Shown here piece by piece: positions 16,085 to 37,941 of a stretch of 44,097 bases of DNA. The notes below the pieces were generated by a model, which saw nothing but the letters and a program-made list of their open reading frames with translations, was not told the origin of the DNA and ran no database searches. The DNA lies in assembly GCA_964583545.1 (NCBI GenBank), contig CAZOVW010000002.1:1-44097 (forward strand). The letters run 5' to 3'. Within the stretch, counting starts at the first letter, position 1. Every line of letters begins with the position of its first letter. The position numbers were made by a program, and so were the translations under genes. Origin of the DNA: an uncultured Dehalococcoidales bacterium. Its GTDB lineage: Bacteria > Chloroflexota > Dehalococcoidia > E44-bin15.

Positions 16085-16107
16085 CTGGGGCCCCCTGCAA
16101 GCCGAAA

Positions 16108-17514: not shown

Positions 17515-17532
17515 CAGCAACCTTCCCTCTTC

Positions 17533-18918: not shown

Positions 18919-18939
18919 AGTTAGGCCCTATAGAGAGAC

Positions 18940-18965: not shown

Positions 18966-19037
18966 AATTATGTGGACCTTCGATTCTTTGGTGAAATGAG
19001 GTGGAATAATGTATTTCGGTTCGCTGACATCTAATGG

Positions 19038-19289: not shown

Positions 19290-19307
19290 ATGTTTCTTAG
19301 CCCTCTA

Positions 19308-20546: not shown

Positions 20547-20594
20547 CTTGGCAACTACCTTAATTGTATCCTTGCCCGAAGGGCAAGGATCGCG

Positions 20595-21644
20595 CTACCA
20601 TTTCACACCAAGCATAATACAAGATAAGCCGCTGCCAATTCCCAGCATCGCAATCTTATCACCACTATTAAGGTGACCCTCATCGATTGCTATGGCTAGC
20701 GTAATGGGAAGGGATACTGCTCCGATGTTTCCTAAGTATTCTACAGTGGAAAAGCCCTTTGAGTCACCCAGCCTCAGAGTATCGAACAGTAGCTCTTGAT
20801 GGACAACGCTAACCTGATGGCAGAAAACCTTATCTACATCTGAGTTGTGCCACCCCAGCTCTTTTCTTAAGGCCTTCCATGTTTCCTCCGCTAACAGCAG
20901 GCCATTTATCAGAATTCCTTGAGAGTCCGTACGCATAGTCGGACGGCTATTCGGGTTGAAGAAATAGGTATCATCTTCTATACGACAAAGGCCGCTGTGT
21001 TGTGAAGCAGTCCGTATCACCCCACCTAGAAGTTTATGGCTGGATTTTGACAGGGAGGAGTGTGTTAGCACCGCTGCTACTGCTCCGGATCCCAAGGTCA
21101 GAGTGGCAAAGGATGCTTTGAGCTTGGCTCTGGTCATGTTTGGGTCTTGCAAGATTTCATCTATTGTTGTGTCAGTGATGTGTCTACTGCTCTCGCTAGC
21201 AACCACAATTCCTGCTTTTACTTGGCCTAATTCGATCATATTTGCCAGAGTTACCATGCCGTTGACGAAACCCAAACAGGCATTTGAGATGTCGAAGATA
21301 GTGGCTGTGGGAGGGAGACCTAAAGAATCATGGACTAAGAAGGCTGTCGCCGGCTCTAGGAAGTCGCGACTAAGTGAAGTATGAAGGAGACATTCAATGT
21401 CTTCCTTCTCTATCTCAGAATTTGCGATGGCCTTTTCCGCTGCCGTTGTGCTAGCCCAACTCGGAGGCGTTCCGTCATTCCAGAATTGCCGCTCGCGAAT
21501 TCCGGTCATCATTTCGAGGCGACCGAAGGCAAGGTTCAGTTTATCGTATACCGGGGCTAACCTTTCCTCTAGGCTCAATGACGTGATGATGTTTCCTGGG
21601 AGTTTGTACCCAAAAGACTCAATGCAGACGTTTTTGTATAACAT
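20595..21644 (-). CDS. Thiolase-fold condensing enzyme of the FabH/OleA type
   Basis: 349 aa. Cys (SNACLGF), His (FCHQVS), Asn (GNIGAVSLP). The SRDFLEPATA segment and the N-terminal ...LEERLAPVYDKLNL...TGIRERQFW resemble OleA-type enzymes as I remember them more than E. coli FabH. Confidence 0.7.
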   Translation of the reverse strand: MLYKNVCIESFGYKLPGNIITSLSLEERLAPVYDKLNLAFGRLEMMTGIRERQFWNDGTPPSWASTTAAEKAIANSEIEKEDIECLLHTSLSRDFLEPATAFLVHDSLGLPPTATIFDISNACLGFVNGMVTLANMIELGQVKAGIVVASESSRHITDTTIDEILQDPNMTRAKLKASFATLTLGSGAVAAVLTHSSLSKSSHKLLGGVIRTASQHSGLCRIEDDTYFFNPNSRPTMRTDSQGILINGLLLAEETWKALRKELGWHNSDVDKVFCHQVSVVHQELLFDTLRLGDSKGFSTVEYLGNIGAVSLPITLAIAIDEGHLNSGDKIAMLGIGSGLSCIMLGVKW

Positions 21645-21764
21645 CGAATAACCCCTCTACAGACTCGCTACCATGTCAGGAACATAGCTCCCGGTTTCTA
21701 CAGCGACATATTGGCATCACATGGCACATCACAACGGTTAGAAGCTCTAAAGGAAAATGTTGTA

Positions 21765-22178
21765 TTAATCTTTGCGTGATTTACCTTCCTCTCTCGATAG
21801 CAACGTTGGGATATGAAACTTCATCTTAAGATTTGACCAGCTATCAAGGGACTTCGAGGGAATTATCCTGTCCGGCACATACTTGTATATTCCGGCGATG
21901 ACAGCGGAAATCTTTCTCGAATTTGCTGCTGTATCCGGGATATACTCATCTGCTGCGGCAATAAGAGAAGAGCGCACCTTATGAGGAAGTTTATCTAGCT
22001 CATTAATGACCCTATCGATCGCTTTAGGTGGGACACACTTATCTAATATATTCATGAAAAGGAGCAGCAGGCTATCCGGCACATATCTGTCCACTACCTT
22101 TGCCGCAAGCGAGATTGCCTTCCTCGAGACAAATCTGCCCACCGATTTAAAGAGAGAAATTTTTCTCTTTGACAACAT
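21765..22178 (-). CDS. Hypothetical small protein with four [YC]-[VI]-P-[DP] repeats
   Basis: 137 aa from ATG 22178 (AGGAGGG 6-7 nt upstream); the track ORF starts at TTG 22208. Repeats are DRYVPD, DKCVPP, DEYIPD, YKYVPD. I recognise no family. Confidence 0.45.
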   Translation of the reverse strand: MLSKRKISLFKSVGRFVSRKAISLAAKVVDRYVPDSLLLLFMNILDKCVPPKAIDRVINELDKLPHKVRSSLIAAADEYIPDTAANSRKISAVIAGIYKYVPDRIIPSKSLDSWSNLKMKFHIPTLLSREEGKSRKD

Positions 22179-22240
22179 AGCTTTCCCTCCTGCTCGAATA
22201 TACTGCAACTAGTGGAATATAGTAATCTATGCGATGTATA

Positions 22241-22270
22241 ATTATCACATCTTAAAGGCATGCTTGTCAA
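22241..22270 (-). promoter_or_regulatory. Candidate internal promoter ahead of the small protein / thiolase / KS / ACP genes
   Basis: On the minus strand: TTGACA (22265-22270), 18-nt spacer, TGtGATAAT (GATAAT at 22241-22246). Confidence 0.4.
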
Positions 22271-22325
22271 CGACAGATCGCTTGCCTGTCCTTTACTTTC
22301 AAGGTGAGTATCTCAAGAAGTGCGC

Positions 22326-23642
22326 CTAATTTTTGAGCCAAAAGTGGGTCTTATCAAATTCTTTCGATCGGTATCGCTCCCATCTTGGAAAAATCTCTTG
22401 GTAGATCCCAAGCCTTATCCCAATTAACTTTATAGCTCTCAGAAGTAGCATTCTAAGCATCCTTGGCTTACTAAGAAGTGCTTTCATCAGCACAAGAAGG
22501 GTTCTAGTCAGTGTAGGTGAGCATCCCTCTATTTTGGTGGCGTTCTGTAAGCTCTTATTACTTCTGATTGCACAGTCGCCGTAAAGAAAGACTTTTTTCG
22601 TATCTCTTTCTGGCCTTAATTCCAGCCCATAATATAACTCCACACCGCCAAAATCCATTTTAGGATTATCTTTGGCAAGTATTGATAGCGCTAAAGCGAG
22701 CGTGGCACCACAAGCTGAACAAAGGCTCTGTCCTGGAGGGGGAGCTGAAAGTCCTGTAACTTTTGCTGGGGTCAATAATTCTTTATCTGGTTCAAACTGC
22801 CACTCAAGCTGCTCCTTTAGAGATTCTATATCTTCTCCTTTGATTTGGATCGTGCTGATATCTAAAGATCGATTATGCCTTTCGGCAAATTCTCTCAGAT
22901 AGTCAACTTGTGACGGATCGATCCCCAGTATTGTTGCCCCAACAATATCGCACTCGAATATATCTGGGCTTGCTATAATCAAATCCTTGCGGTGGGCCAC
23001 CCCCACGAGAGTTTCTGGCCCTTTTCCCAACATGTATATTCCATCAATTATGACCAAGTCACTCTTGATTGCTTCGTTCAAAAGGCAAATTAGAGAATCT
23101 AGTCGGTTGGTAATATGAAACCTTTTTTTTGAAGCTTGGCTGAGGCAACCCTTCAGATTCTTGAAACCCAGAGAGACCTTTGTTTGGAAGTGGGTTTTTA
23201 GTACTGGGACATTGATTAGAAAGTCTGCCTCTAAAGCTGTTTTGGAAACCTGGACTTTTACCCCTCCTAAATCTAGCTCCTGAAAAGGACCCTGGTTGAA
23301 ATCGATCAGTTTAGCCCCGTATTTTTCAGCCACCTTGTCTATACCTGTCCCCTTAAAACCTCGTTTCGTATACGGCTCAAGTTCATCAAATATACCAATG
23401 ATGGCACCTTCACCTATAGAAATATCTTTGCAGCCATATTCGAGCAATAATTGTATGATTCCGTCTATGATCTTTGAGGTGGTCACCATTCCATAGGGAG
23501 GCATTATTTCGTGGCGGAAACAGTTATTGGGTTTTATCAGGATTTCGTCATTCCTATTGAGTTTCTCAAATCCATCACATAGTTTAATGGCGCGTCGAAT
23601 AGAATCAAGAGACCCATCAAATCTCACTAGCGATACTGTCAT
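22326..23642 (-). CDS. DUF362-domain protein with a C-terminal extension
   Basis: 438 aa. N-terminal ...ILIKPNN...MVTTSKIIDGIIQLLLEYGCKDISIGEG pattern typical of DUF362 (PF04015). C-terminal 130 aa contain Cys motifs (CSACG; YGDCAI; EGCSP) and a basic/hydrophobic tail. Confidence 0.5.
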   Translation of the reverse strand: MTVSLVRFDGSLDSIRRAIKLCDGFEKLNRNDEILIKPNNCFRHEIMPPYGMVTTSKIIDGIIQLLLEYGCKDISIGEGAIIGIFDELEPYTKRGFKGTGIDKVAEKYGAKLIDFNQGPFQELDLGGVKVQVSKTALEADFLINVPVLKTHFQTKVSLGFKNLKGCLSQASKKRFHITNRLDSLICLLNEAIKSDLVIIDGIYMLGKGPETLVGVAHRKDLIIASPDIFECDIVGATILGIDPSQVDYLREFAERHNRSLDISTIQIKGEDIESLKEQLEWQFEPDKELLTPAKVTGLSAPPPGQSLCSACGATLALALSILAKDNPKMDFGGVELYYGLELRPERDTKKVFLYGDCAIRSNKSLQNATKIEGCSPTLTRTLLVLMKALLSKPRMLRMLLLRAIKLIGIRLGIYQEIFPRWERYRSKEFDKTHFWLKN

Positions 23643-23686
23643 TATTCGCCCCCCAACCAGCCGAGGCTCAGAGGGAACATTGCTCG

Positions 23687-25045
23687 CTACTCCCTGACCA
23701 ACGGGTAGTTTCTTATTTCTTCGAGGTATGAGTCCAGAAAACTCTGAGCCTTTTCCCTGGAGAAGAGGCCGGTTCTATAGCCCAGGCAGACCTGCAACCT
23801 GCCGCTGTAGGTGTATGTCCCCAGGCTCAGCCCCATGGGGGTAACCAGTGGCGGGGCGGTTTCCATGTTCACTATCTTGGCGCTGCCGATTCGGAGCTCT
23901 CCCCATTCTTCGGGCCAGACCACGCCTACATTACTAACGAAAGTGGTATCAACATATATTCGAGTAATCATCAAGAACCTGCACATTGCTCTCATAACGA
24001 CCTGGGGAAAGCGAGAACAAAAGTAATAGAAATAAACCAGGGAGTATTGGATGCCATCCTTGACTATTGAGGCCATATCCACCCTCACCTTATGTAGCAG
24101 CTTTACCGGGTCAGCCCTATCTTCGGGCATGGTCGGTAGGGAAACCCAGGCTACCTGGTTTGAAACCACATCCTTAGGCCCCCTGGGCCCGATGAATGTG
24201 GGAACCATTAGGCGTATACATTTGCTACCTTTGCCGTGCAGGCTGTTCCATCTCTCAATAACCCTGAAGCAGGCTGCCAGCAGGACATCATTCAGGGTAA
24301 CACGAGCTGCCTTTGCTCTTGACCGAATTTGCCCAAACTCTGCTGGGTCTATGGTCCTATTGCAGTAGTCGGTTCCCTTTGACCGCTCTGACCTGTCGTG
24401 GAAGATCCTTGTCGGTGGGTGGAAAGGTGCTATGAAGAATCGATGGAAAAGGCTATAGATCATTTTCATATAGTAGTGCTCTACGCTTGGCCTTTGGCTG
24501 CGTGCAAATTGTAGTATTTCATCCCCTTTACGGGATATGGGGAAATCATCGAGGGACTTAGAGTCTTCAGGAACGTCCTTATCGTAACTTTCAAAGATCT
24601 TCCGGATGAAAAGAACGGCGCCGAGCCCATCCACTGCAATGTGATGACCAGTGAAAATCAGTGAAGATTCAACCTCATTCTTTTTTAAGAGAAGGGCTCT
24701 AAATGGGAATTCCTTCCATAGGTTCAGGGGTTGGTTTATCCATTCAGAAAGGCACCTCTCATAGTTTGCATCTGGGAGTTTGGCCAGGTCTTTGACAGTC
24801 AGAGCTTTCTCTCCGAGGTCTTCCTGTACTTCTTGGAAAGTCCTGAAATACTTACTTCGCAGGATTGTTCTCATTTGGGGATGAGCTTTTAGGGCGGATA
24901 GGATTGCTCGATTCAACCTATCGGCATCTATTTCTCCTTCGATGTTCAGGATTTGGTGGGCAATCATAGGCTCGTTTATGCTGTCAAGAGCTAGTAGACA
25001 CTTGCTAACGCAATTCAGAGGCATTCGAACGTTGGAATTTCCCAT
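23687..25045 (-). CDS. HHxxxDG acyltransferase (condensation / WS-DGAT / PapA5 superfamily), paralogue A
   Basis: 452 aa. Catalytic motif GHHIAVDGLG at about residue 134; N-terminal IEGEIDADRLNRAILSALKAHPQMRTIL resembles C-domain motifs C1-C2. GGGAGG RBS. Confidence 0.7.
   Translation of the reverse strand: MGNSNVRMPLNCVSKCLLALDSINEPMIAHQILNIEGEIDADRLNRAILSALKAHPQMRTILRSKYFRTFQEVQEDLGEKALTVKDLAKLPDANYERCLSEWINQPLNLWKEFPFRALLLKKNEVESSLIFTGHHIAVDGLGAVLFIRKIFESYDKDVPEDSKSLDDFPISRKGDEILQFARSQRPSVEHYYMKMIYSLFHRFFIAPFHPPTRIFHDRSERSKGTDYCNRTIDPAEFGQIRSRAKAARVTLNDVLLAACFRVIERWNSLHGKGSKCIRLMVPTFIGPRGPKDVVSNQVAWVSLPTMPEDRADPVKLLHKVRVDMASIVKDGIQYSLVYFYYFCSRFPQVVMRAMCRFLMITRIYVDTTFVSNVGVVWPEEWGELRIGSAKIVNMETAPPLVTPMGLSLGTYTYSGRLQVCLGYRTGLFSREKAQSFLDSYLEEIRNYPLVRE
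24545..24987 (-). repeat. Identical block shared with 28416-28858 (inside paralogue A)
   Basis: Line-by-line comparison at offset 3871 shows no mismatch across about 443 nt. Identity drops on both sides. Confidence 0.85.
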
Positions 25046-25074
25046 TATTATCCTCCCTTCTTTTTGATTGCCTC

Positions 25075-26631
25075 TTAATTGACCTGACGCTCCTGTCCCT
25101 CCCAGTACTTCTTGCGCAGTTCAGCCTTCAGTACTTTGCCTGCGAGGTTCTTTGGTAGGAGTTCCACGAACTCGACTGACTTGGGTTTCTTGTATGATGC
25201 CAGGTTTTCCTTACAGCCCCGGATAATCTCTTCTTCGCTCGCCTTCATTCCCGGCTTCAGTTTCACAAAGGCTTTTATAGACTCCCCCCACACCTCGTCA
25301 GGGATGCCGATAACCGCCGTCTCAAGTACAGCCGGGTGCTTAAAGATAGCATTCTCCACTTCCATGGGATACACGTTATAGCCTCCAGTGATAATCATGT
25401 CCGTTTTACGGTCAGCTATAAATAAGTATCTTTCCTCATCGAGATACCCCATATCCCCCGTAAAAAGCCACCCATCTCTTATCGCTTTCTGAGTTGCTTC
25501 CGGGTCTTTCCAGTACTCCTTCATCACCAATGGGCTGCGGACGATGATTTCTCCTTTCTCTCCTGTCGGGACATCATTTCCGTCATCATCCACCACGCGT
25601 ATATTGGTCATGACGAGCTCGCGTCCCGCTGACCCTAACCGACGAGTTTGCTCATCAGTGCCTCCGATTACGTGATCATCCACGCTCAGCGAGGTTATAA
25701 AGAAGCACTCCACCAAACCATAGGCCTGGATGAACACATCTCCGAAAACATCCAGTGCCTGTTTCAACTTCTCCACAGCCATGGGTGCGGAGGAATAAGG
25801 GAGTCTCCTCAGAGTGCTGAGGTCATAATTCTTGAGGTTAGGGTAGGCGAGGAGGAAATAGATGATAGTGGGTGCCAGCCATACCGTGGTGACTTTTTCC
25901 TTTTGAATTGTATCCAGAGCGAAATCGATGTCGAGGTGGCTGATGAGGATGTTGGGCACCCCCATCATGAAATGGGGTGGGAGGAGAACGCCCGAGGCGT
26001 GGTTTATGGAGGCGACGTAGAGGGCCACATCGTCGGGTTGGACATTTGTTTCAATACAGTACATATAGGTGGCCATTATAAGGGCCCTATGCGTTTGCAC
26101 ACAGCCCTTGGCCTTGCCGGTGGTGCCCGAAGTATGGAGGATGGCAATAGGGTCGTTCTCATCGATTTCCACTCGCGTGGGTTTGTCGCTTGCTTTGTCC
26201 ATAAGGTCCTCATACCTCTCCATACCAGAGAAGCCCTCGCCATCTACTATGAAGTGCTCCACAGTCTCGATCTTATCTTTCACAGAGTCTATGCCTTCGG
26301 CGAACTTCTGCTGGATGATAAGGGCTCGGGACTCCGCGTTGTTAAGATGGTAGGCATGCTCCAAGGGGTGATGACGGGAATCTAAAGGTGCCCATACCAT
26401 GCCGTTCTTGATCAGTCCATACTGGGCTTCTACGGCCATCAGAGAATTTTCTGCCAGTATCGAGACACGGTCGCCTTTCTTAAGGCCAAGACCGTGTAGG
26501 ACATTGCCTATCTTGTTTACCTGCTTCTCCAACTCCCGGTAGGTCACCCGGCGGTCAGCGTGGACTACTGCTACCCGGTCAGGATAATTCATAAACCCTC
26601 TTTTTACCAGACTCCACAAATCCATTTTCAT
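25075..26631 (-). CDS. AMP-forming acyl-CoA/acyl-ACP ligase (ANL superfamily, FadD-like)
   Basis: 518 aa. A3 motif LHTSGTTGKAKG and TGD/GYxxxxDR core (FTGDMGYLDEERYLFIADRKTDMI). Confidence 0.85.
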   Translation of the reverse strand: MKMDLWSLVKRGFMNYPDRVAVVHADRRVTYRELEKQVNKIGNVLHGLGLKKGDRVSILAENSLMAVEAQYGLIKNGMVWAPLDSRHHPLEHAYHLNNAESRALIIQQKFAEGIDSVKDKIETVEHFIVDGEGFSGMERYEDLMDKASDKPTRVEIDENDPIAILHTSGTTGKAKGCVQTHRALIMATYMYCIETNVQPDDVALYVASINHASGVLLPPHFMMGVPNILISHLDIDFALDTIQKEKVTTVWLAPTIIYFLLAYPNLKNYDLSTLRRLPYSSAPMAVEKLKQALDVFGDVFIQAYGLVECFFITSLSVDDHVIGGTDEQTRRLGSAGRELVMTNIRVVDDDGNDVPTGEKGEIIVRSPLVMKEYWKDPEATQKAIRDGWLFTGDMGYLDEERYLFIADRKTDMIITGGYNVYPMEVENAIFKHPAVLETAVIGIPDEVWGESIKAFVKLKPGMKASEEEIIRGCKENLASYKKPKSVEFVELLPKNLAGKVLKAELRKKYWEGQERQVN

Positions 26632-26637
26632 GTCTCC

Positions 26638-27429
26638 TTACATCATGCTGAAACCGCCGCTAACGCTAAGGGTCTGACCTGTGATGAAGTTCGCGGCGTC
26701 TGAGGCTAGGAATACTACTGCGTTAGCCACTTCCTCCGGTTTCACCAGGCGGCCCATGGGGTACTGGCTAATTGCCTTCTCCTTCATCTCTGGAGGTATC
26801 ATGTCGAGAGTCACGCCGGCCCACGCGCTGGTTTTACTCACCGTCCCAGGTTTCTCAGGGATGGTAAGTCCAGGGCAGACAGTATTGACGGTTATGCCAA
26901 ATCTTCCCATCTCCCGCGCTATAGCTTTCCCGAAAGCGATGGCAGCTCCCTTCGTCCCCGAATAAACCGCTCCTCTTGACTGACCCATCCGACCAGCATC
27001 AGAGGAAATGTTCACAATCCTGCCAGCCTTACGCTCGATCATGTGATCCAAAACAGCCCTGGTGCAATTGATCACGCCCAGGTAATTGATCTTGATCTCC
27101 TTCTCATATTCCTCCCTGGGCTCCTCCATGAACAGCTTGTTGGCTACCCAGCCTGCGTTATTGACCAAGATGTCTATATTTCCAAACATTTCCAGAGTCT
27201 TTTTTACCATCGCTTCTACGGAATCATAATCTGTTACATCCGTCTTAATGGCGAGGGCTTTTCCACCCAGGGCTTCAGCTTCCTTGACCACCTTTTGTGC
27301 CTGTTCCTCATCAAGATTAGCGATCACCACATTAGACTTCTCTCTGGCGAAAGCCAGAGTTATGGCACGACCAATATTTGAGTCTCCCCCGGTAACGATA
27401 ATCGTCTTACCTTCCAGCCCTAACTCCAT
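26638..27429 (-). CDS. Classical short-chain dehydrogenase/reductase
   Basis: 263 aa. TGGDSNIG, NNAG and YSGTKGA motifs. Its stop lies 7 nt upstream of the ligase ATG. Confidence 0.8.
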   Translation of the reverse strand: MELGLEGKTIIVTGGDSNIGRAITLAFAREKSNVVIANLDEEQAQKVVKEAEALGGKALAIKTDVTDYDSVEAMVKKTLEMFGNIDILVNNAGWVANKLFMEEPREEYEKEIKINYLGVINCTRAVLDHMIERKAGRIVNISSDAGRMGQSRGAVYSGTKGAAIAFGKAIAREMGRFGITVNTVCPGLTIPEKPGTVSKTSAWAGVTLDMIPPEMKEKAISQYPMGRLVKPEEVANAVVFLASDAANFITGQTLSVSGGFSMM

Positions 27430-27551
27430 TCATTTGACCCCTAAATATGGTGGAATTTGAACATCTTCACAAAACAGCAACCCTTGTCGCAAATATAGTA
27501 TGGAAAACCCACTTTTCAGTAGAATAATTATCAGACAAACCGGCGGTTATT

Positions 27552-28928
27552 TCAACACTCCCTGACCACGGGGTAGTTTCTTATCTCTTCAACATATAGG
27601 TCTAAAAACCTCTGAGCCTTTTCCCTGGAGAAGAGGCCGGTTCTATAGCCCAGGCAGACCTGCAACCTGCCGTTGTAGACGGATGTCACCAGGGTCATCG
27701 GCAGGAGGGACCCAACAGGTGGAACGCCCTCTATGCCCACTATCCTGGCGCTGCCGATTCGGAGCTCTTCTCTCCATGCTTCGGGCCAGATCACGCCTAG
27801 GTTACTAACGACAATGGTATCAACATATATTCGAGTAATCATAAAGAACCTGGCCATTCCTCTCATAACCACCAGAGGAAAGCGAGAGAGGAGGTAAGCG
27901 AGGTAAAGTTGGGAGAAGGGGATTCCATTCTTGACCATTGAGGCCATATTCGCCCTCACCTTATGTAGCAGCTTTACTGGATCGGCCCTATCTTTGGGCA
28001 TGGTCGGTAGGGAAATCCCGGATACCTGGTTTGAAACCACATCCTTAGGCCACTTGGGCCCGATGAATAGGGGAGTCCATATGCGTATACATTTGCTGCG
28101 TTTGCCGTGCAGGCTGTTCCATCTCTCAATAACCCTGAAGCAGGCTGCCAGCAGGACATCGTTCAGGGTAACGCGGGCTGCCTTCGCTCTTGACCGAATT
28201 TGCCCAAACTCTGCTGGGTCTATGGTACCATTGCAGTAGCCGGTTCCCTCTGACTGCCCCGACCTGTCGTGGAAGATCCTTCTCGTTGGGTGAAAAGGCG
28301 CTATGAAGAATCGATGGAAAAGGCTGTAGATCATTTTCATATAGTAGTGCTCCACGCTTGGCCTTTGGCTGCGTGCAAATTGCAGTATTTCATCCCCTTT
28401 ACGGGATATGGGGATATCATCGAGGGACTTAGAGTCTTCAGGAACGTCCTTATCGTAACTTTCAAAGATCTTCCGGATGAAAAGAACGGCGCCGAGCCCA
28501 TCCACTGCAATGTGATGACCAGTGAAAATCAGTGAAGATTCAACCTCATTCTTTTTTAAGAGAAGGGCTCTAAATGGGAATTCCTTCCATAGGTTCAGGG
28601 GTTGGTTTATCCATTCAGAAAGGCACCTCTCATAGTTTGCATCTGGGAGTTTGGCCAGGTCTTTGACAGTCAGAGCTTTCTCTCCGAGGTCTTCCTGTAC
28701 TTCTTGGAAAGTCCTGAAATACTTACTTCGCAGGATTGTTCTCATTTGGGGATGAGCTTTTAGGGCGGATAGGATTGCTCGATTCAACCTATCGGCATCT
28801 ATTTCTCCTTCGATGTTCAGGATTTGGTGGGCAATCATAGGCTCGTTTATGCTGTCAACAGCTAATATACCCTTCTCAATGGAATTCAGAGGCATTGACC
28901 TGCCGGGCCTTTTCACTTTTCTTTGCAT
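27552..28928 (-). CDS. HHxxxDG acyltransferase, paralogue B
   Basis: Same GHHIAVDGLG motif. The N-terminal half is almost identical to paralogue A and the C-terminal half diverges. Start is uncertain: ATG 28928 or ATG 28895 (MPLNS..., matching A). The track ORF start at 29006 overlaps the SRPBCC gene. Confidence 0.7.
   Translation of the reverse strand: MQRKVKRPGRSMPLNSIEKGILAVDSINEPMIAHQILNIEGEIDADRLNRAILSALKAHPQMRTILRSKYFRTFQEVQEDLGEKALTVKDLAKLPDANYERCLSEWINQPLNLWKEFPFRALLLKKNEVESSLIFTGHHIAVDGLGAVLFIRKIFESYDKDVPEDSKSLDDIPISRKGDEILQFARSQRPSVEHYYMKMIYSLFHRFFIAPFHPTRRIFHDRSGQSEGTGYCNGTIDPAEFGQIRSRAKAARVTLNDVLLAACFRVIERWNSLHGKRSKCIRIWTPLFIGPKWPKDVVSNQVSGISLPTMPKDRADPVKLLHKVRANMASMVKNGIPFSQLYLAYLLSRFPLVVMRGMARFFMITRIYVDTIVVSNLGVIWPEAWREELRIGSARIVGIEGVPPVGSLLPMTLVTSVYNGRLQVCLGYRTGLFSREKAQRFLDLYVEEIRNYPVVREC
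28416..28858 (-). repeat. Identical block shared with 24545-24987 (inside paralogue B)
   Basis: See the feature at 24545-24987. Confidence 0.85.
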
Positions 28929-29344
28929 AGCGATCGCTCGATCCTCGTTTTTGCTGCTGGCGCAATCTTGTCTGAGATTGCTTGACCACCTCGGTATGCC
29001 AGCCATGCCAGGGGCCCTGAGACCTCGCCGCCTATAGTGACCCTCGTTTTGCCATTTACAGGTTCCAGAGTATAGAAGCGTGTTAACTTGGTGCCTAAGG
29101 CTTTTCCTTGCATGACCACGGCGCGTTGTGGGACGAATTCGGTGATAGTCATCACCAACTTAACTCTGATCCTGCTTACCTTAAGTGTCACAGAAAGTTG
29201 TGAGCCTACTGTCAAAGGCCCCTCGGGGACTCTCTCAATCTTCTTAATGGACGGTATCCATTCGGACCACTCTTCAAGATTATCAACTAACGTCCAGACC
29301 TTCTCTAGAGGAGCATTGATCTCAACACTGCTGCTAAACCTCAT
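28913..29344 (-). CDS. SRPBCC (polyketide cyclase/START-like) family protein
   Basis: MRFSSSVEINAPLEKVWTLVDNLEEWSEWIPS... is a typical SRPBCC N-terminus. Start set at ATG 29344 (GAGGGGG RBS) rather than track TTG 29410. Confidence 0.65.
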   Translation of the reverse strand: MRFSSSVEINAPLEKVWTLVDNLEEWSEWIPSIKKIERVPEGPLTVGSQLSVTLKVSRIRVKLVMTITEFVPQRAVVMQGKALGTKLTRFYTLEPVNGKTRVTIGGEVSGPLAWLAYRGGQAISDKIAPAAKTRIERSLCKEK

Positions 29345-29543
29345 ACCTACCCCCTCGCTCCTAACCTCAAGCTTGGTGCTGATGATATGCTCATGGTGTC
29401 TAGCTATCAAGCTCGCTGGCGGCTAGGGCTTTGGTGGCGCGGCACCCAAGTCTGAAAAGGAGCCTGACGAGCAGCTTGTCATGAGGACAGATAGCTACCT
29501 TCATCGTAGCACGGGATAGGCCAGAAATCAAGGTTTGGGCGAG

Positions 29544-31601: not shown

Positions 31602-32399
31602 CTAGCTGAAGCGTTCCGCAAAAATGCACTTTTCCACGATATTGCGAACTGCAACAAGTCCGGGTGAGTCGGGGAGTTCCGTTATCGGCTTACCAATCAA
31701 GTCGTAGTAGGCGATGTTCTCATCATGGGGGATATAACCAAGTACCTCCAGGCCCATTTTCTGGGCGGCTTGCTTAAGTAGTTCCTCGCTGCCCTGCACT
31801 CTATTAAAGACCAGACCTAGCTTTTCACACTGTATCACCCTCTCGCTTTGCGCCATCCTCTTTATCTGGGCTGCGGTTTGTATGCCTCTAGATGTGGCGT
31901 CGGTAACAATAATCAGGGTGTCGACACGGCCCATGACCTGCCTATTTATCTGTTCCAGGCCGGCCTCTCCGTCAATGAGGATAGTATCAAAGCTCTGGGA
32001 GAGGGTCTCTATCGCCTCGCGCAGCAGGGCATTGACCGGGCAAAAGCAGCCTAGTGTTTCGGTACGCCCCATGGCCAGCAGGGCGAAGCCGTCCATCTCA
32101 TTAAGGGCCTCCAGAACCATATAGTCAAGCATGTCAGCTAACTGGCGCTTTTCTTCCTGCTTGCCTCCTTTGGCGGTCTTTATTATCTCCTCGCGGATCT
32201 GGCCCATGGTTCTCCCGACGTTTACGCCAAGGGCGTGGGACAGGCCCATGGCCGGATCGGCGTCAATCAGCAGTAGCTTGCTTGCCTTGCCACTATCCAG
32301 AAGGACTCTGGTTATCATAGCCGTGAGCACGGTTTTCCCCGTGCCACCTTTGCCACATACAGCGACCAACCTCTTGCTCGAGGTAAAAGATTCAGACAT
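31602..32399 (-). CDS. CooC/AcsF-type (MinD/ParA-fold) metal-insertion ATPase-like protein
   Basis: 265 aa. Deviant Walker A CGKGGTGKT and a CXC motif (LGCFCP) at the position of the metal-binding CXC of CooC-type Ni chaperones. Confidence 0.7.
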   Translation of the reverse strand: MSESFTSSKRLVAVCGKGGTGKTVLTAMITRVLLDSGKASKLLLIDADPAMGLSHALGVNVGRTMGQIREEIIKTAKGGKQEEKRQLADMLDYMVLEALNEMDGFALLAMGRTETLGCFCPVNALLREAIETLSQSFDTILIDGEAGLEQINRQVMGRVDTLIIVTDATSRGIQTAAQIKRMAQSERVIQCEKLGLVFNRVQGSEELLKQAAQKMGLEVLGYIPHDENIAYYDLIGKPITELPDSPGLVAVRNIVEKCIFAERFS

Positions 32400-32429
32400 C
32401 AGTACTTTCTCTTAAGCAGAATTTATAAA

Positions 32430-33221
32430 CTATGATTTAGCAGCGACTTTAGCCTTGCCGGTCTTTTTCTTGCGCACGGTGACCACTTCCCTAATTTCGT
32501 CGCACACCGGCTTATAGTCGCAGGACCGGCAATCCCAGCCCAGGGTGCACTCAATGTCAAAGCCTTTGGCCTTCCAGACTTCCTTGGTGATGTTCCTGGA
32601 TATCTCCCGAACCTGCGTGCCAATGTCATCCAGAAGTTGCAGGTCTTCTTTGCTCGAGGTGACAAAAACAATTTCCATCGCCTCTATTTTGGGCACCTCT
32701 GATTTGAAGGTGGCCATCAGCGCTCTTCCCAGGGTCTCAAAGCAAAAACCCTTCGCCGCAGCGTCACTGCTCACCCTGCTCCACATGCACTGAGGTATGC
32801 TCCTGATCATGTACCCTTCTATCTGGTCGGCGATGTATAGGTTAGCTTGCAGCGCTTCATGATCTTTCTCGCCGAGGCCTGTTCCCCCCACCATCAAGAC
32901 CTGACCGAATGGCAGGCTGGCCCCCGGCGATTCGGGGATATCAGGGCCGATCAGGGTAATCTTGCCATCGCTGATCAGAGACGGGTTGTCTGTCCACAGG
33001 AGAAAGGCGCAGGAACCGGCGTTGGGGTTGCCCAGCTCGATGAAGGTATCTCCCCGCAGTATTATGCCTGAGCTAGCCTGGGGGCCAACCCGAACAGGCA
33101 GTCCTTCCACCAGTTCGCTGACCGCCGCGGGACAATCGATTTCCTTGACCTGCCTCCCCTTTTCACGCATTTCCAGGCCGTATTCAGTCAGCTTCTTAAC
33201 ATACACATCGAAGATCGCCAT
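32430..33221 (-). CDS. Truncated acetyl-CoA synthase-like protein (CdhC N-terminal / AcsB middle domain only) with a C-terminal CX5CX2CX5C motif
   Basis: 263 aa. By eye, ...GDTFIELGNPN...DGKITLIGPDIPESPGASLPFG...MWSRVSSDAAAKGFCFETLGRALMATFKSEVPKIEAMEIVFVT... aligns with remembered M. thermoacetica AcsB (...DGKIEVIGPDIDQIPEGSKLPLG...WLRVSKDAVAKGFRFKNYGEILVAKMKEEFPAIVDRVQVTIFT...). It ends at ECTLGWDCRSCDYKPVC, roughly where the ACS A-cluster domain begins. Confidence 0.65.
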   Translation of the reverse strand: MAIFDVYVKKLTEYGLEMREKGRQVKEIDCPAAVSELVEGLPVRVGPQASSGIILRGDTFIELGNPNAGSCAFLLWTDNPSLISDGKITLIGPDIPESPGASLPFGQVLMVGGTGLGEKDHEALQANLYIADQIEGYMIRSIPQCMWSRVSSDAAAKGFCFETLGRALMATFKSEVPKIEAMEIVFVTSSKEDLQLLDDIGTQVREISRNITKEVWKAKGFDIECTLGWDCRSCDYKPVCDEIREVVTVRKKKTGKAKVAAKS

Positions 33222-33291
33222 AATCTGTTTGCTCCTGAGGAGATTGAGTTTCGTCAGAGTTTGTCGTAGCCTGCCCGATGAGGGAACTGGC

Positions 33292-34080
33292 TCAGGGTCG
33301 ACTGTTCAGTTTCTCCCTGGCGATGAGTGCCGCCCCTATTGCTCCAGCGATTTGGGGGTCCTGGGGCAACTTCTTCACACTAACCCCCAGTTTCTCCTCC
33401 AATGCCTTGGCCAGGCCCTCGTTCTTGGCACATCCGCCGGTCAGCGCCACGTCTTCGACAAGGCCAACCTTTCTTACCATGGAATTCAACCTGCCCGCTA
33501 TCGAGTTATGCAGGCCGGCAGCAATATCGGCGAGTTCAACGCCCTCATTAATAAGGGTTATAACCTCGGACTCAGCAAACACGCTACACTGGCTGGTAAT
33601 AGTAGCAGGGTTCTTCGACTGGAGAGATAGCGATGAAAGCCCTTCAAGCCCACAGTCGAGTGCCCTGGCCATTGCCTCGAAAAACCGCCCCGTCCCCGCA
33701 GCACACCTGTCGTTCATCACAAACTCGATAACGTTGCCCTTTTCGTCTATGGACATCACCTTGCAGTCCTGCCCCCCGATGTCAACCACCGTTCTCACCG
33801 TGGGACAAAGCCAGTGAGCACCCCGGGCATGACACGTTATCTCCGAAACATTTTCGTTGGCGAAAGGCACCTTGAGCCTGCCGTAGCCGGTGCCTACAAT
33901 GTAGTCCACCTCGTCCAGTGAGAAGATGCCGAGATAACCCAAGGCTTCATCCATCACACGGCGCGCCGTCAACTCAGGCTTGGTGGTGGACGGGATAATG
34001 ATGTATGAGGCGATCTCCCCATCCTTCATGACGACAGCCTTACCGGTAGCAGAACCTACATCACAGCCTCCGACAATCAC
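33292..34080 (-). CDS. ATP-dependent activase of the 2-hydroxyacyl-CoA dehydratase/benzoyl-CoA reductase family (BcrAD/BadFG/HgdC-like)
   Basis: Start reassigned to GTG 34080 (GGAAAGGAAAG RBS, 25 nt after the upstream stop), giving MIVGGCDVGSATGKAVV. Cluster-bridging Cys contexts NDRCAAGTGRFFE and SQCSVFAESEV are present. The track ORF (to 34230) overlaps the upstream gene. Confidence 0.85.
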   Translation of the reverse strand: MIVGGCDVGSATGKAVVMKDGEIASYIIIPSTTKPELTARRVMDEALGYLGIFSLDEVDYIVGTGYGRLKVPFANENVSEITCHARGAHWLCPTVRTVVDIGGQDCKVMSIDEKGNVIEFVMNDRCAAGTGRFFEAMARALDCGLEGLSSLSLQSKNPATITSQCSVFAESEVITLINEGVELADIAAGLHNSIAGRLNSMVRKVGLVEDVALTGGCAKNEGLAKALEEKLGVSVKKLPQDPQIAGAIGAALIAREKLNSRP

Positions 34081-34105
34081 GATCTTTCCTTTCCCTGCTG
34101 TTATC

Positions 34106-35398
34106 TTACTTCTGGCCCAGGCCGTGCACGCTGAAGAACTTGGAGAGTTTGTCCTTGACCGTGTCCACCCCCGAGTACCTCTTGTCGAACAGGTCGAGAC
34201 CGATGTGCAAGAAAGGTACCCCGATCTCACGGCACTTCTCCCTCATCATGCCTACGTTTGCAGACCCATCCTTGTGGCCCATGTGACCCGGCCAGATAAC
34301 GCAATCTACCTTGTAGTCTTTGACTATTCGCGATATATCGCTGAGGAAGTTATCCGCCACACCGCGCGCCTGCCTGATCATCGGCATCTCAGTCAGGGCC
34401 CTCTTAGCCAGGCCCATGAACATGGTGTCCTCGTTTTTGGTGTCTATCGGCTCGTAAGGGGTGTAGCCGAACATATTCATGACGAAGTTCACTCCCCACT
34501 CCGCCTCCAGCCACGGTTGGATATCCCATTGCCAGAGTAGCGGCAGGATGTCGAACCAGAGTGCTCGGATCCTCTCCCCGCCCGGTACCCCGCTTACCCC
34601 CGCCTTCACCCGCTTCTCGGCGTTGGCAACGAGCTTCTTGAACCATTCGGTGCCCTCGGGAACACCGGGATAGTAGTACGTAGCTATAGCGAAGCACTGC
34701 GGCGGACCGATGGTCCAGTCGTGCGGGCACGGCACCACCCGCCTCAGGTCATTGTATTCCTGCCACAGCGCATATTCCTTGTTGGACTCCTCACATACCT
34801 CCCGCAGACGGTCTATGTCCAGCGTATACCCAGTGTGCTCAGTGATAAACTCCACCATCCGCTTAAGTTCCTTAACATAGTACTCGAAGCTCCGATCATC
34901 TTCCCAGTAGGGCGGGTCAGCGGCGAAGATCGGAACATCACGCCACTTGCCGTGCTTGATTGCCTGGTGGACCACTGTCGTGCCGTCGCAGGGATGAAGC
35001 AGGCTGATAAGCGCAGTCGGCTTTGGACTAACATCAGCCTCTACATAGTACGCTGCCAGCCTGAGGACGGTGCACAGATCGCTGCCGAGCATGCCCTCGG
35101 CTCCATCGATATCCTGGTCTAGCAGCGGTGCTGAAACCCCCAGGAACGGTGTCTGCAAGAAAATCCACCACGGGCAATCCATAGCGGTATATATCTCCGG
35201 TGCGCAGCAGAAGTAGCTGGCAATGTAAGGTTTGCCCTCCTCGACGCAACCTACTATCTCGTCATACTTGTTCATAACTGTCTTTATAACAAACCGGTTG
35301 ATGTCTCCTTCCTCCGATGTATCTAGCGCAAGCGCATCGTGGAGACCCTGAAGAAAAGCTTTATCATCCACTAACCGTTGCAATTCCTTTTTAACCAT
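34106..35398 (-). CDS. 2-hydroxyacyl-CoA dehydratase/BcrC-BadD-HgdB family protein, alpha-like paralogue 2
   Basis: 430 aa. HGD-D-type family features (YFCCAPEIY, LHPCDGT, VPCPHDW, VIWPGHMGHKDG). Paralogue of 35500-36789. Confidence 0.75.
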   Translation of the reverse strand: MVKKELQRLVDDKAFLQGLHDALALDTSEEGDINRFVIKTVMNKYDEIVGCVEEGKPYIASYFCCAPEIYTAMDCPWWIFLQTPFLGVSAPLLDQDIDGAEGMLGSDLCTVLRLAAYYVEADVSPKPTALISLLHPCDGTTVVHQAIKHGKWRDVPIFAADPPYWEDDRSFEYYVKELKRMVEFITEHTGYTLDIDRLREVCEESNKEYALWQEYNDLRRVVPCPHDWTIGPPQCFAIATYYYPGVPEGTEWFKKLVANAEKRVKAGVSGVPGGERIRALWFDILPLLWQWDIQPWLEAEWGVNFVMNMFGYTPYEPIDTKNEDTMFMGLAKRALTEMPMIRQARGVADNFLSDISRIVKDYKVDCVIWPGHMGHKDGSANVGMMREKCREIGVPFLHIGLDLFDKRYSGVDTVKDKLSKFFSVHGLGQK

Positions 35399-35455
35399 TG
35401 TTTACCTCCCTATGCTTTCCAGGAATGTCTGGGCCCTGGTTCCTAACTGCGCTGT
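35399..35455 (-). repeat. Relic copy of the 3' end of the beta-like gene, left by tandem duplication
   Basis: 35396-35455 (cattgtttacctccctatgctttccaggaatgtctgggccctggttcctaact) aligns with 36787-36845 (catcgtctaccttcccatgctttccaagaatgcctgggccctggttctcacct). The latter spans the stop and last codons of the 382-aa gene. Confidence 0.75.
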
Positions 35456-35499
35456 CCAAGCGTTATTCCAGTCTCCTTACCTTTTTTGTCATCGATTAC

Positions 35500-36789
35500 T
35501 CACTTCTGGCCCAGGCCGTGCGCGCTGAAGAACTGGGAGAACCTGTCTTTGACCTCGTCCGGAGAGGTATACCTATTGTCGAAGAGGTCAAGCCCGATGT
35601 GGAGGAATGGTACCCCCATCTCGCGACACTTCTCCCTCATCATGCCAATGTTTGCCGATCCATCCTTATGGCCCATATGGCCCGGCCAGATGACGCAATC
35701 TATCTTGTAGTCCTTGACTATTCGCTCTATATCGTCGAGGAAGTGATCCGCCACACCGCGCGCCTGCCTCACCATCGGCACGTCAAACAAAGCCCGCTTA
35801 GCCAGGCCTTTGAACATGGCGTCCTCACTTGAGGTGTCAATCAGCGTGTATGGCGTATAGCCGAACATGTCCATAACCATGACCCCTCCCCACTCCTCCT
35901 CCAACCACGGAAAGATGTCAAGGCTCAGCGCTAAAGACACAACATCGAACCACAGTAACCTGATCCTCTCCTTCGGCACCTTGCTCTTCTTCTGTCGGAC
36001 TAGCTCCTCGGCGTCGGCAATGAGATCCCTGATCCAGGCAGTGCCTACGGGATCACCCACTAATAAGGTCTGCACTACACCGAACGTCTGTATTCCGAAG
36101 CCGAAGCCGTGGGGACATGGCACCGCCCGTCTCAGGTCGTTGTATTCCTGCCACAGCGCGTATTGCTTGTTGGACTCCCCTATAACCTCCCGCAGTCTAT
36201 CCATATCCAGTTTGTGCCCGGTGTGCTCCTCGAGGAATGATACCATCCGCTTAAGTTCAACAGCATAGTAATCTACACTTCGCTCATCCTCCCAATAGGG
36301 TGGGTCACAGGCGAACATCGGAACGTTACGCCAGTTTTCGCTTTGCGCGATTATTTGGTGCAGCACCGTTGTACCGTCGCAGGGGTGAAGTAGAGCGATG
36401 ACCGCAGTTGGTAGTGGAGCAAGGTCTTCCGCTATATAGTATCCGGCTATCCTGAGGATGGTGCACAGGTCCTTTCCGAACAGTTTCTCGCTCCCATCAA
36501 TCTCGTCTGGTAGAGTGGGCGTTACAGCCCCGGTGAACGCGGGGGTCAAAAAGGTGTACCAGGGGAGTTCCATGGCGGTGTATAGCTCCGGTGCACAAGC
36601 GAAGTAGCTGGCGATGAATGGCTTGCCCTCCTCAACACACCTTATTATTTCGTTGTGGTGGTCAACAAAGGCCTTGGTCGGAACCATATAGAGCTTGCTA
36701 TCCGGTGTTGGAGACTGCGTAAACGTCTCCACCATAATGTGGAGCGTATCGCGCTCCTGGATAAACCTTTCCAATCTCTTTTCAGTCAT
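35500..36789 (-). CDS. 2-hydroxyacyl-CoA dehydratase/BcrC-BadD-HgdB family protein, alpha-like paralogue 1
   Basis: 429 aa. Same motifs (YFACAPELY, LHPCDGT, VPCPHGF, VIWPGHMGHKDG). The C-terminal 90 aa are nearly identical to the paralogue. Confidence 0.75.
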   Translation of the reverse strand: MTEKRLERFIQERDTLHIMVETFTQSPTPDSKLYMVPTKAFVDHHNEIIRCVEEGKPFIASYFACAPELYTAMELPWYTFLTPAFTGAVTPTLPDEIDGSEKLFGKDLCTILRIAGYYIAEDLAPLPTAVIALLHPCDGTTVLHQIIAQSENWRNVPMFACDPPYWEDERSVDYYAVELKRMVSFLEEHTGHKLDMDRLREVIGESNKQYALWQEYNDLRRAVPCPHGFGFGIQTFGVVQTLLVGDPVGTAWIRDLIADAEELVRQKKSKVPKERIRLLWFDVVSLALSLDIFPWLEEEWGGVMVMDMFGYTPYTLIDTSSEDAMFKGLAKRALFDVPMVRQARGVADHFLDDIERIVKDYKIDCVIWPGHMGHKDGSANIGMMREKCREMGVPFLHIGLDLFDNRYTSPDEVKDRFSQFFSAHGLGQK

Positions 36790-36792
36790 CGT

Positions 36793-37941
36793 CTACCTTC
36801 CCATGCTTTCCAAGAATGCCTGGGCCCTGGTTCTCACCTGGCCGACGATGCCAGCCAGAAGGTATTCCCTGTCCAGTTTGAGGAAGGGGATACCTGCCTC
36901 CTTCAAGTCTTTGTCGAGCATGAAATTCTCAACGGTCCACAGGTCACAGAAGATCATCCGCAGGCCGATAACCCCATCCACCTTGAAATCCCTGACCATG
37001 TCCCTGACGAACTGGGACCTTCGCGGTTGAGCATCGAACATCCGTGGGCAGGCGGGTTTTTCCATGATATAGTACCGCGCCAGGGCGGTAAGCGGATCTT
37101 TCTTCCTCTCATCGACATCTTTCCAGAAAATCCTGGTGCCAAAGCAAAGCGAATCGGTGACCACAAGGCCACCCTGTTCCTCAACGACTTTAATGAAGGC
37201 CGGGTCATCGAGTATGGCGCCCACCAGCATCAATCTCGCCCGGTAACCCTTGATGCCCTCCGCCTGGCTTAATTCATCCAGCAGCTCGGTAAGCATTTTG
37301 TTGTACTGCTCCCTGGGCATAGCCGTGCTGGCTACGACGACAGCCATCGCTTCAGTGCCGGTAATCGGCGGGTTTTCCTTCTTCCTGAGGTCATAAAGCT
37401 TGCGCAGCAGGTGTCTCGTCTCATTGTGGGTCTTTATCGCCCCCCGCAGCTTATCATCGGTGATCGTTATGCCGAGATGCTTCTCCAGCGCTTCCTTGAA
37501 TATTGCCAGCTCGTCCCGCCACCATTCCACCTGCACCTCGGTGGTCTTCTTGGGGAGGCTCATCATGTGCGTGAAGGGGGTCCCCACCTTGCGCTTCCAG
37601 TTGTCGTAGATGCGGCGGACGTGGTCGCAGTTGTTGAGCCAGACAGCCCCCTCAATGAAATCATACTCTCCCAGGAGCCCCATATTGAAGGCATGACGGC
37701 AGAAACTGCAATTGATGCTGCTCAAATACGCATCTGCCAGCTCCGTTCCCGTGCTGCCAGTGGCCCTCACTCGCATGGGGACCAGGCCAGCAGCGGTGAT
37801 GATCTCCTCCGGCCCGTAGGAACAGAAGTAACCCACCACCTTGCCCCCCTGCTCTATCCATTTCTTCAATTTAGGGTTAAGGATGGTCTCGGCGGCTGTG
37901 GTGAATTCCTCTAATGCCGGCGACTTTACCTTTGTCTCCAA
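36793..37941 (-). CDS. 2-hydroxyacyl-CoA dehydratase/BcrC-BadD-HgdB family protein, beta-like subunit
   Basis: 382 aa. ...GYFCSYGPEEII...SINCSFCRH...TDSLCFGTR... TTG start at 37941 with a GGGGG about 8 nt upstream; no in-frame ATG is nearby. Confidence 0.7.
   Translation of the reverse strand: METKVKSPALEEFTTAAETILNPKLKKWIEQGGKVVGYFCSYGPEEIITAAGLVPMRVRATGSTGTELADAYLSSINCSFCRHAFNMGLLGEYDFIEGAVWLNNCDHVRRIYDNWKRKVGTPFTHMMSLPKKTTEVQVEWWRDELAIFKEALEKHLGITITDDKLRGAIKTHNETRHLLRKLYDLRKKENPPITGTEAMAVVVASTAMPREQYNKMLTELLDELSQAEGIKGYRARLMLVGAILDDPAFIKVVEEQGGLVVTDSLCFGTRIFWKDVDERKKDPLTALARYYIMEKPACPRMFDAQPRRSQFVRDMVRDFKVDGVIGLRMIFCDLWTVENFMLDKDLKEAGIPFLKLDREYLLAGIVGQVRTRAQAFLESMGR

Follow-up and report, generated by a model that had tools for sequence, protein, structure and literature searches.

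We analyzed a 44,097-nucleotide stretch of DNA from an uncultured Dehalococcoidales bacterium (positions 1 to 44,097 of contig CAZOVW010000002.1, assembly GCA_964583545.1; hereafter the window) and focused on a minus-strand gene at 32430..33221. The gene has an ATG start with an AGGAG sequence ~10 nt upstream and encodes a stand-alone protein of 263 aa related to acetyl-CoA synthase (ACS; AcsB or CdhC), which we call CdhC-like. It is the fifth of six co-directional minus-strand genes that span 31602..37941 and form an operon with gaps of 3-101 nt; the other genes encode a BzdN-like subunit, two BzdO-like paralogues, an ATP-dependent activase, and a CooC-type ATPase. We found the CdhC-like protein to consist of the middle domain of ACS (A2) and a Cys loop that aligns with the start of the domain after it, where the first cubane ligands lie, and to be an obligate neighbor of the CooC-type ATPase. 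The pair is a near-universal single-copy companion of a distinct enzyme clade of the BzdNO, 2-hydroxyacyl-CoA dehydratase (HAD), and double-cubane cluster protein (DCCP) type and its activase.

Sequence and Structure of the CdhC-Like Protein

The homology of the protein to ACS is far above chance, and the matching region is the A2 domain. The Pfam family PF03598 (CdhC) matched residues 41-191 with E=2.1e-18 and 67 bits (cutoff 24), and the match takes in positions 1-153 of the 155 in the profile. A phmmer search against all Protein Data Bank (PDB) sequences gave significant matches (E<=6e-9) to ACS/CdhC chains only, the best of them (E~1e-17) to residues 4-156 of Methanosarcina thermophila CdhC, 316-470 of Moorella thermoacetica ACS, and 317-478 of Carboxydothermus hydrogenoformans ACS. 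The NCBIfam models for ACS/CdhC (TIGR00316, NF003379, NF040764, and NF007078) matched the A2 region with 63.7-72.7 bits, compared with cutoffs of 356-809. In a profile-profile alignment (hhalign) of the family against CdhC, residues 40-240 were paired with CdhC residues 5-205 (probability 99.85%, E=1e-30). The CdhC side of this alignment consisted of partial CdhC sequences that reach into the cubane loop; a search started from a CdhC fragment of 153 aa yielded nothing longer than 267 aa (CdhC fragments) and no full-length ACS. The initial annotation had aligned the protein by eye with the N-terminal 230 residues of CdhC, equivalent to the middle domain of AcsB. The domain assignment is borne out, while the extent is reduced to approximately the first 205 residues.

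A first AlphaFold2 (AF2) model built from 30 close homologues was mediocre (predicted local distance difference test [pLDDT] 67.7), and we replaced it with one built from 120 diverse family representatives, which reached a pLDDT of 93.2 and a predicted template modeling score (pTM) of 0.85. In the latter, the A2 domain (~1-190) is followed by a long helix (191-218), the Cys loop (~219-236), and a basic C-terminal helix (237-262). Foldseek comparison of the model with the PDB gave 23 matches at E<=0.001, all of them ACS (E from 5e-15 to 6e-8), and the best superimposed with an rmsd of 2.3-2.7 Å over ~175 columns. No non-ACS fold match was found in the PDB, the next match having E=0.38. The PF03598 search and the structural comparison had both been proposed as checks on the ACS assignment, and both agree with it.

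The sequence motifs quoted in the initial annotation are all present, with one correction: DGKITLIGPDI (residues 85-95) has a spacer of two residues, as in ACS, and not of one. The others are LPFG (residues 103-106), W147-S-R149-V-S-S-D-A-A-A-K-G-F159, and F172-K-S-E-V-P-K-I-E180. Near the C terminus, E224-CTLGWDCRSCDYKPVC240 forms a CX5CX2CX5C motif (C225/C231/C234/C240) that, as had been suggested from the sequence, is tentatively placed by hhalign at the position of the ACS cubane ligands. Partial CdhC sequences read Y-G-C-x2-C-Q-S-F-A-P-T-H-x-C-...-C-G at the start of the A-cluster domain, and the M. thermoacetica ACS ligands (C506, C509, C518, and C528) are spaced C-x2-C-x8-C-x9-C, compared with C-x5-C-x2-C-x5-C in the CdhC-like protein. 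The protein ends ~23 residues past its last Cys, before the fourth ACS ligand and the Cys-Gly-Cys Ni site, and its close homologues share the same C-terminal end point. Its sequence contains no Cys-Gly-Cys, and the Pfam scan gave no match to PF19436 (the A3 domain); the reported lack of the Ni-binding segment and of the rest of the A-cluster domain is thus correct.

The A2 domain of ACS carries functional residues of its own. In Clostridium autoethanogenum ACS, Arg383 and His386 (Arg405 and His408 in M. thermoacetica) have been proposed to act in acetyl transfer, acetyl-CoA is bound mainly by A2, and Trp405 stacks on its adenine (bioRxiv 10.1101/2024.08.05.606187). The positions of the Arg and the His are occupied in the CdhC-like protein by A126 or N127, depending on the alignment, and by Y129, and they are not conserved in the family. 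Trp405, which is Trp427 in M. thermoacetica, corresponds to W147 as mapped via the phmmer alignment offsets; W147 is kept in 115 and the adjacent R149 in 117 of the 120 family representatives. In ACS, A2 also docks the Fe-S domain of the corrinoid Fe-S protein (CoFeSP) (PMC12289521), and the conserved W147/R149 surface may therefore serve partner docking instead of CoA binding. With no Ni site, A3 domain, catalytic residues, or carbon monoxide dehydrogenase (CODH)/CoFeSP context in the scanned loci, and with scores below the curated cutoffs, a bona fide ACS is ruled out.

Conservation Across the Family

A word-indexed search returned 827 homologues, of which the best 120 are all 242-286 aa long and 62-83% identical to the query. 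An exhaustive search of 50%-identity representatives gave 539 clusters at E<=0.001, 78 of them at E<=1e-30; the best 150 of the 539 are 85-310 aa long, and none is a full-length ACS. The closest members in named genomes come from Dehalococcoidia metagenome-assembled genomes (MAGs) and are 76-77% identical. Against five orthologues, the gene showed dN/dS ratios of 0.13-0.29, and it is under purifying selection.

We counted the conservation of the Cys and other residues in 120 representatives with 25-57% identity. C231, C234, and C240 are invariant (120/120), and a fourth Cys is found upstream at x3-x5 in 88 sequences. No conserved His was seen near the Cys motif among these representatives.

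The source labels of the family are "CO dehydrogenase/acetyl-CoA synthase beta subunit", "acetyl-CoA synthase", "carbon monoxide dehydrogenase", and, in one case, "hypothetical protein". The enzyme labels are misleading and can produce false calls of Wood-Ljungdahl or CO metabolism in metagenome studies.

Operon Genes

The first operon gene (36793..37941, minus strand) encodes a BzdN-like subunit of 382 aa that matches BzdN in the PDB (8s02_B, E=3e-54). Its Cys residues C40, C78, C105, C266, C298, and C332 are 92-100% conserved in 78 homologues. Both BzdN and DCCP hold an [8Fe-9S] double cubane with six Cys (PMC11971306), and the subunit is accordingly predicted to be a double-cubane [8Fe-9S] carrier. 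Its score against the NCBIfam double_cubane model NF040772 (228 bits) is below the cutoff of 350.

A single N-like gene is accompanied by two tandem genes for BzdO/DCCP-like putative catalytic subunits, both on the minus strand: paralogue 1 of 429 aa (35500..36789; PF06050, E=7e-50) and paralogue 2 of 430 aa (34106..35398; PF06050, E=8e-48). They are 60% identical, and both contain PGHMGHKDG. Paralogue 1 matched DCCP (E=3e-10), MbdO (2e-5), and BzdO (2e-4) in the PDB, and the two scored 31-49 bits against NF040772 (cutoff 350). The catalytic site of BzdO comprises Cys95, Cys128, Cys380, Glu65, and His131. The O-like subunits keep two of the three cluster Cys (C109 and C137 in paralogue 1) and have a Thr at the position of the catalytic His131. 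The position of Cys380, within G-C-E-G in BzdO, is taken by His374 inside P-G-H-M-G-H-K-D; among 88 O-like open reading frames (ORFs) of related loci, 73 have His and 13 have kept Cys. The substitution suggests a nonstandard, possibly His-ligated, active-site cluster in the O-like subunits. This ligand switch did not covary cleanly with the number of Cys (three or four) in the CdhC-like protein.

The fourth gene (33292..34080, minus strand) encodes an ATP-dependent activase of the BcrAD/BadFG family (262 aa; PF01869, E=2e-60), similar to HgdC and BzdQ and scoring 268.9 bits against TIGR00241 (cutoff 125.4). It has the conserved cluster Cys C133 and C176 and, as the only activase gene, presumably forms a homodimer. 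The mechanically called ORF, with its start at 34230, shares 125 nt with the upstream gene, and homologues align only from residue ~47. A GTG at 34080 follows the upstream stop codon and is preceded by a purine-rich ribosome-binding site; it is probably the true start. Against the BzdN, BzdO, and BzdQ models, the operon proteins scored 199, 28, and 198 bits, compared with cutoffs of 454, 449, and 380.

The last gene (31602..32399, minus strand), starting 30 nt downstream of the CdhC-like stop codon, encodes a CooC/AcsF-type P-loop ATPase of 265 aa with Pfam matches to CbiA/AAA_31. Its best PDB match is CooC1 (3kje, E=1e-13), over the full length, with the metal-binding C-x-C of the dimer interface aligned and a deviant Walker A motif. 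The C-x-C is present in 77 of 77 CooC-like partners and the P-loop GKGGxGK[ST] in 76 of 77. In a Pfam scan, no Fer4-type ferredoxin gene was found inside the six-gene operon.

The Cassette in Other Genomes

To place the operon in a wider context, we used a scan of one genome per species, which gave 78 loci, 72 of them with a full CdhC-like gene. Neighboring genes were detected with the window proteins as probes, and upstream counts took in only those 51 loci whose flank measures 4.5 kb or more. The hosts are mostly MAGs of Dehalococcoidia or other Chloroflexota, and the others belong to Desulfobacterota, Syntrophorhabdaceae, Ignavibacteria, Bacteroidales, Myxococcota, Acidobacteria, Verrucomicrobiota, and Binatia, with one gammaproteobacterium.

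All of these loci (51/51) have N-like and O-like genes upstream in the same orientation, and 46/51 have an activase there. By a strict ORF rule, a CooC-like gene follows immediately downstream in 51/63 loci; four more CooC-like genes are accounted for by ORF-start artifacts and three more are found within 3 kb, giving >90% overall. The same cassette surrounds family members that are only 25-33% identical to the query. In 14 loci, N-like or O-like genes occur in more than one copy (up to three N/O pairs); the CdhC-like and CooC-like genes are single in each of these loci, and no more than one activase is present. In Pfam-annotated related loci, no CODH, CoFeSP, or methyltransferase was found beside the CdhC-like gene, its neighbors being of the HGD-D, BcrAD, and CbiA families instead. 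The initial annotation had envisaged recruitment from the Wood-Ljungdahl machinery into another enzyme complex. The synteny strongly supports such recruitment, the recruiting system being a BzdNO/HAD/double-cubane-type enzyme with its activase.

Members with three Cys (D-C-x2-C-x5-C only) also occur in the cassette, for example, at L089:4272-11490 and L090:5512-11469. Both of these loci have two activase genes, like BzdPQ and BcrAD, and the contig of L089 carries the archaeal marker genes NAC and TiaS. L090 adjoins genes of the pyruvate:ferredoxin-oxidoreductase type and FrhB-like genes. On a 0.9-Mb contig (L001:1-20798; JGI Ga0207433_10000002), the genes bordering the cassette encode two acyl-CoA dehydrogenases, an aldehyde:ferredoxin oxidoreductase, and two family-III CoA-transferases, and L089 likewise has two acyl-CoA dehydrogenases. 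The acyl-CoA dehydrogenases and CoA-transferases beside these cassettes hint that the substrates may be CoA thioesters.

A divergent CdhC-like/CooC-like pair (37% identity) is found in a Desulfobacteraceae MAG at L080:2543-4202, with no HGD-D or BcrAD genes detected within 11 kb. Its neighbors include two ORFs without a Pfam match, a vWA protein and a MoxR/CbbQ-type AAA ATPase, a radical-SAM activating enzyme with a ferredoxin domain, and a PrpD/MmgE protein. At L084:2356-6676, a distant member (26-28% identity) and its CooC-like partner follow an FAD_binding_4 protein and a Fer4_8/CCG protein, the latter GlcD/GlcF- or HdrD-like, and a BcrAD gene is located at the contig end on the other strand.

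Other Genes in the Window

The genes flanking the operon are unrelated to it: an MFS transporter, recF, dnaN, and leuS on one side and a dCMP deaminase and queA on the other. No CODH, corrinoid Fe-S protein, or methyltransferase domains were detected in the window ORFs scanned (at least 150 aa), and folD (7715..8599) and fhs (9580..11343) are present 21-25 kb from the CdhC-like gene, which agrees with the gene content initially reported. The two are part of a one-carbon/nucleotide cluster (6955..12474) with thyX and an amidohydrolase; on the opposite strand after fhs, it includes a protein of 270 aa whose C-terminal domain is a 2x[4Fe-4S] ferredoxin. No link between this cluster and the CdhC-like gene, 21 kb away, was detected.

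The minus-strand region 12551..29410 is a large biosynthetic block of lipid- or polyketide-like character. Within it lie two stand-alone condensation-domain proteins, an AMP-binding enzyme, ketosynthase and KAS-III-like genes, three genes of the short-chain dehydrogenase/ketoreductase type, an acyltransferase, a phosphopantetheinyl transferase, two flavoproteins similar to amine oxidases and phytoene desaturases, a DUF362 protein, and a polyketide-cyclase/SRPBCC protein.

Possible Functions of the Pair

Our preferred reading, to which we assign a probability of roughly 0.45, is that the CdhC-like protein is the operon's dedicated low-potential [4Fe-4S] carrier and that the CooC-like ATPase assembles or ATP-gates its site. 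By retaining A2 together with the initial cubane-binding loop of the A-cluster domain and losing all that comes after this loop, the protein would have become a functional accessory metalloprotein in place of an acetyl-CoA synthase, acting as a pair with the ATPase encoded downstream. Its D-C-x2-C-x5-C motif, together with the fourth Cys in most members, would bind a [4Fe-4S]-type cluster, and the ATPase would assemble, load, or ATP-gate this metal site, by analogy with AcsF on ACS. Canonical bcr/bzd operons contain a ferredoxin gene, and the CdhC-like protein may do the job of that ferredoxin as a low-potential electron carrier or entry point.

The pair and the HgdC/BzdQ-like activase would then be a common service module for an ATP-dependent, low-potential radical enzyme of the BzdN/BzdO-like type, a member of the superfamily of benzoyl-CoA reductases (BCRs), HADs, and double-cubane proteins that probably acts on a CoA thioester. 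We read the three genes as such a module because the copy number of the pair tracks the activase and not the catalytic pairs, and the persistence of the pair at L080, where HGD genes are lacking, fits its being a unit. We infer the cofactor type, the electron transfer, the physical complex, and the role of the ATPase in this system.

Several observations weigh against a dedicated [4Fe-4S] carrier. Although hhalign pairs C225, C231, and C240 with the cubane ligands C506, C509, and C518 of M. thermoacetica ACS, the Cys-by-Cys pairing in the tail is uncertain, and 32 of the 120 representatives have only the three Cys of C-x2-C-x5-C, in most cases after an Asp. Confidence in the AF2 model is lowest in the Cys loop (pLDDT ~70), as expected with the metal site being empty in the model. 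An electron-carrier role leaves unexplained why W147 and R149, which in ACS belong to the CoA-adenine site, are so strictly conserved. To our knowledge, the only characterized activity in the CooC family is Ni insertion, and a plain [4Fe-4S] carrier normally needs no dedicated ATPase of this family. Finally, canonical BzdNO has been produced with its clusters in Escherichia coli (PMC11971306), and such an accessory pair seemingly is not a general requirement in the superfamily.

A possible, if somewhat doubtful, alternative is that the client of the CooC-like metallochaperone is the N/O enzyme itself, for example, the His-containing O-like site, and that the A2-domain protein is a maturation adaptor or scaffold, providing a docking platform or transiently carrying a cluster or metal perhaps by reusing an ancestral AcsF-ACS interaction surface. 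We know of CooC/AcsF homologues only as maturation factors. The conserved P-loop and C-x-C of the ATPase, the presence of one pair per locus whatever the number of N/O sets, and its occurrence apart from HGD genes at L080 would all suit such a role, and the His in place of the third Cys ligand in 73/88 O-like subunits hints at a nonstandard cluster in need of help. Systems with the canonical Cys in the O-like subunit still have the pair, however, and the His substitution is therefore not what demands it. The invariant Cys and the strong purifying selection over the whole protein would equally suit a permanent cofactor-bearing subunit.

A more far-reaching and, in our judgment, unlikely proposal is that the ACS-derived Cys protein and the CooC-type ATPase form a hitherto unrecognized metal-delivery or ATP-coupled electron-entry system that gives this widespread BCR-like clade a noncanonical, possibly His-ligated or Ni-containing, active-site cluster. 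If true, uncultured Dehalococcoidia, other anaerobic bacteria, and possibly archaea would have had nickel/ACS-type metallocluster biology transplanted into their ATP-dependent radical reductases.

We consider it quite unlikely that the Cys motif holds a Ni or heterometallic site of its own. The biochemistry of the CooC family is Ni insertion, and the ATPase could insert Ni into the motif as a Ni-thiolate or bridged to a cubane, producing a stripped-down A-cluster, with the CoA-binding face offering a CoA thiol or thioester for the protein's own catalytic thioester or C-S chemistry. The Cys alignment would accommodate this, as hhalign includes the Ni-bridging Cys509 position among the paired cubane ligands; the counterpart of the adenine-stacking Trp of ACS and the neighboring Arg are kept in 115/120 and 117/120 members, and the three-Cys subfamily could leave a coordination site open. 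What speaks against it is that the Cys-Gly-Cys holding both Ni in ACS is missing, the acetyl-transfer residues Arg383 and His386 are replaced (by A126 or N127 and by Y129), and just three or four Cys are available with no conserved His near the motif.

Still less probable is a non-redox subunit that binds a CoA ester or nucleotide, has a structural Zn knuckle, and delivers substrate to the N/O enzyme or acts as its regulatory lid. The conserved W147 and R149, the binding of acetyl-CoA by ACS mainly via A2, and the acyl-CoA dehydrogenases and CoA-transferases near some loci, suggestive of CoA-ester substrates, would agree with this role, but BzdNO forms its CoA channel from its own helices (PMC11971306), C-x2-C-x5-C aligns with the Fe-S ligand position of the parent enzyme, and the obligatory CooC-like partner would be left unexplained.

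A decayed acsB or cdhC fragment without a function of its own, whether pseudogene or frameshift artifact, has in its favor only the truncated look and a database annotation as "CO dehydrogenase/acetyl-CoA synthase beta subunit" and is refuted, in agreement with the initial annotation, which had seen the 30-nt gap lead directly into the CooC-like gene: hundreds of homologues have an equal length and end point (242-286 aa in the close ones), dN/dS is 0.13-0.29, the next ORF is CooC-like and unrelated to ACS, and the operon context is kept across phyla.

Novelty and Implications

In the searchable full-text literature, which excludes subscription-only papers, we found no description of a stand-alone CdhC-like protein or of the cassette; in the same literature, neither an A2-domain Cys protein nor a CooC-type ATPase was found as part of a described BCR, HAD, or DCCP system. 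On the evidence of its sequence, the operon is predicted to encode a BCR/HAD/DCCP-type enzyme that depends on ATP and is joined by an accessory pair made of ACS and CooC parts, a pair unprecedented as judged on this searchable literature.

ACS is viewed as an ancient, single-purpose enzyme, and our results give one of its domains an independent and widespread second life in the kind of organisms that dominate anoxic sediments. They also define a conserved five-component version of the BCR/hydroxyacyl-CoA dehydratase/double-cubane class in which two parts are additional and have no counterpart in the characterized systems. The cassette offers a handle on how such enzymes get their electrons or clusters, on the roles of CooC-family ATPases outside CODH/ACS, and on the contribution that the A2 domain itself makes, be it CoA binding or partner docking.

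Comparison with Known Systems

ACS (AcsB/CdhC, EC 2.3.1.169) is the only fold match of the CdhC-like protein in the PDB. The two share A2 and the motifs DGKIxxIGPDI, LPxG, EG, and WxRVSxxAxxKGF, including the adenine-stacking Trp, and, by the tentative tail alignment, the start of A3 with a Cys motif at the first cubane ligand position; a CooC/AcsF-type ATPase is encoded next to the gene, as in acs operons. The CdhC-like protein differs from ACS in lacking A1, A3 past the first loop, the fourth cubane Cys at the ACS position, and Cys-Gly-Cys, and in the replacement of the catalytic Arg and His of A2. It also departs from ACS by an extra Cys (C234) that is universal in the family, by the altered spacing of its Cys, and by its basic C-terminal helix.

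Among the enzyme systems, the operon resembles class I BCR (BzdNOPQ with its ferredoxin BzdM). The N-like subunit is closest to BzdN and has the six [8Fe-9S] Cys, the O-like subunits are related to BzdO and MbdO, and a BzdQ-like ATPase is present; the layout of an ATP-driven activase feeding a cluster-rich heterodimer is the same. In contrast to the two activase genes of class I BCR (BzdP and BzdQ), the operon has one, the three-Cys subfamily being the exception within the cassettes. Further differences are the Thr at the position of BzdO His131, the His at that of Cys380 in most members, the scores below the equivalog cutoffs, and an ACS-A2 Cys protein and CooC-type ATPase in an operon with no ferredoxin gene. 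The PF06050 and PF01869 superfamily membership and the single-gene, homodimer-type activator are shared with DCCP/DCCP-R, HadBC with HadI, and HgdAB with HgdC. Compared with the homodimeric DCCP, the core here is an N/O heterodimer, the score is below the cutoff, and the CdhC-like/CooC-like pair is extra.

The CooC/AcsF ATPases insert Ni into their clients, CODH and ACS. The pair described here differs in that the CdhC-like client lacks the Ni-binding residues of the A-cluster and in that the pair is embedded in another enzyme system, with CODH/ACS not nearby; it resembles them in that the CooC-like partner is still paired with a protein derived from the client of AcsF.

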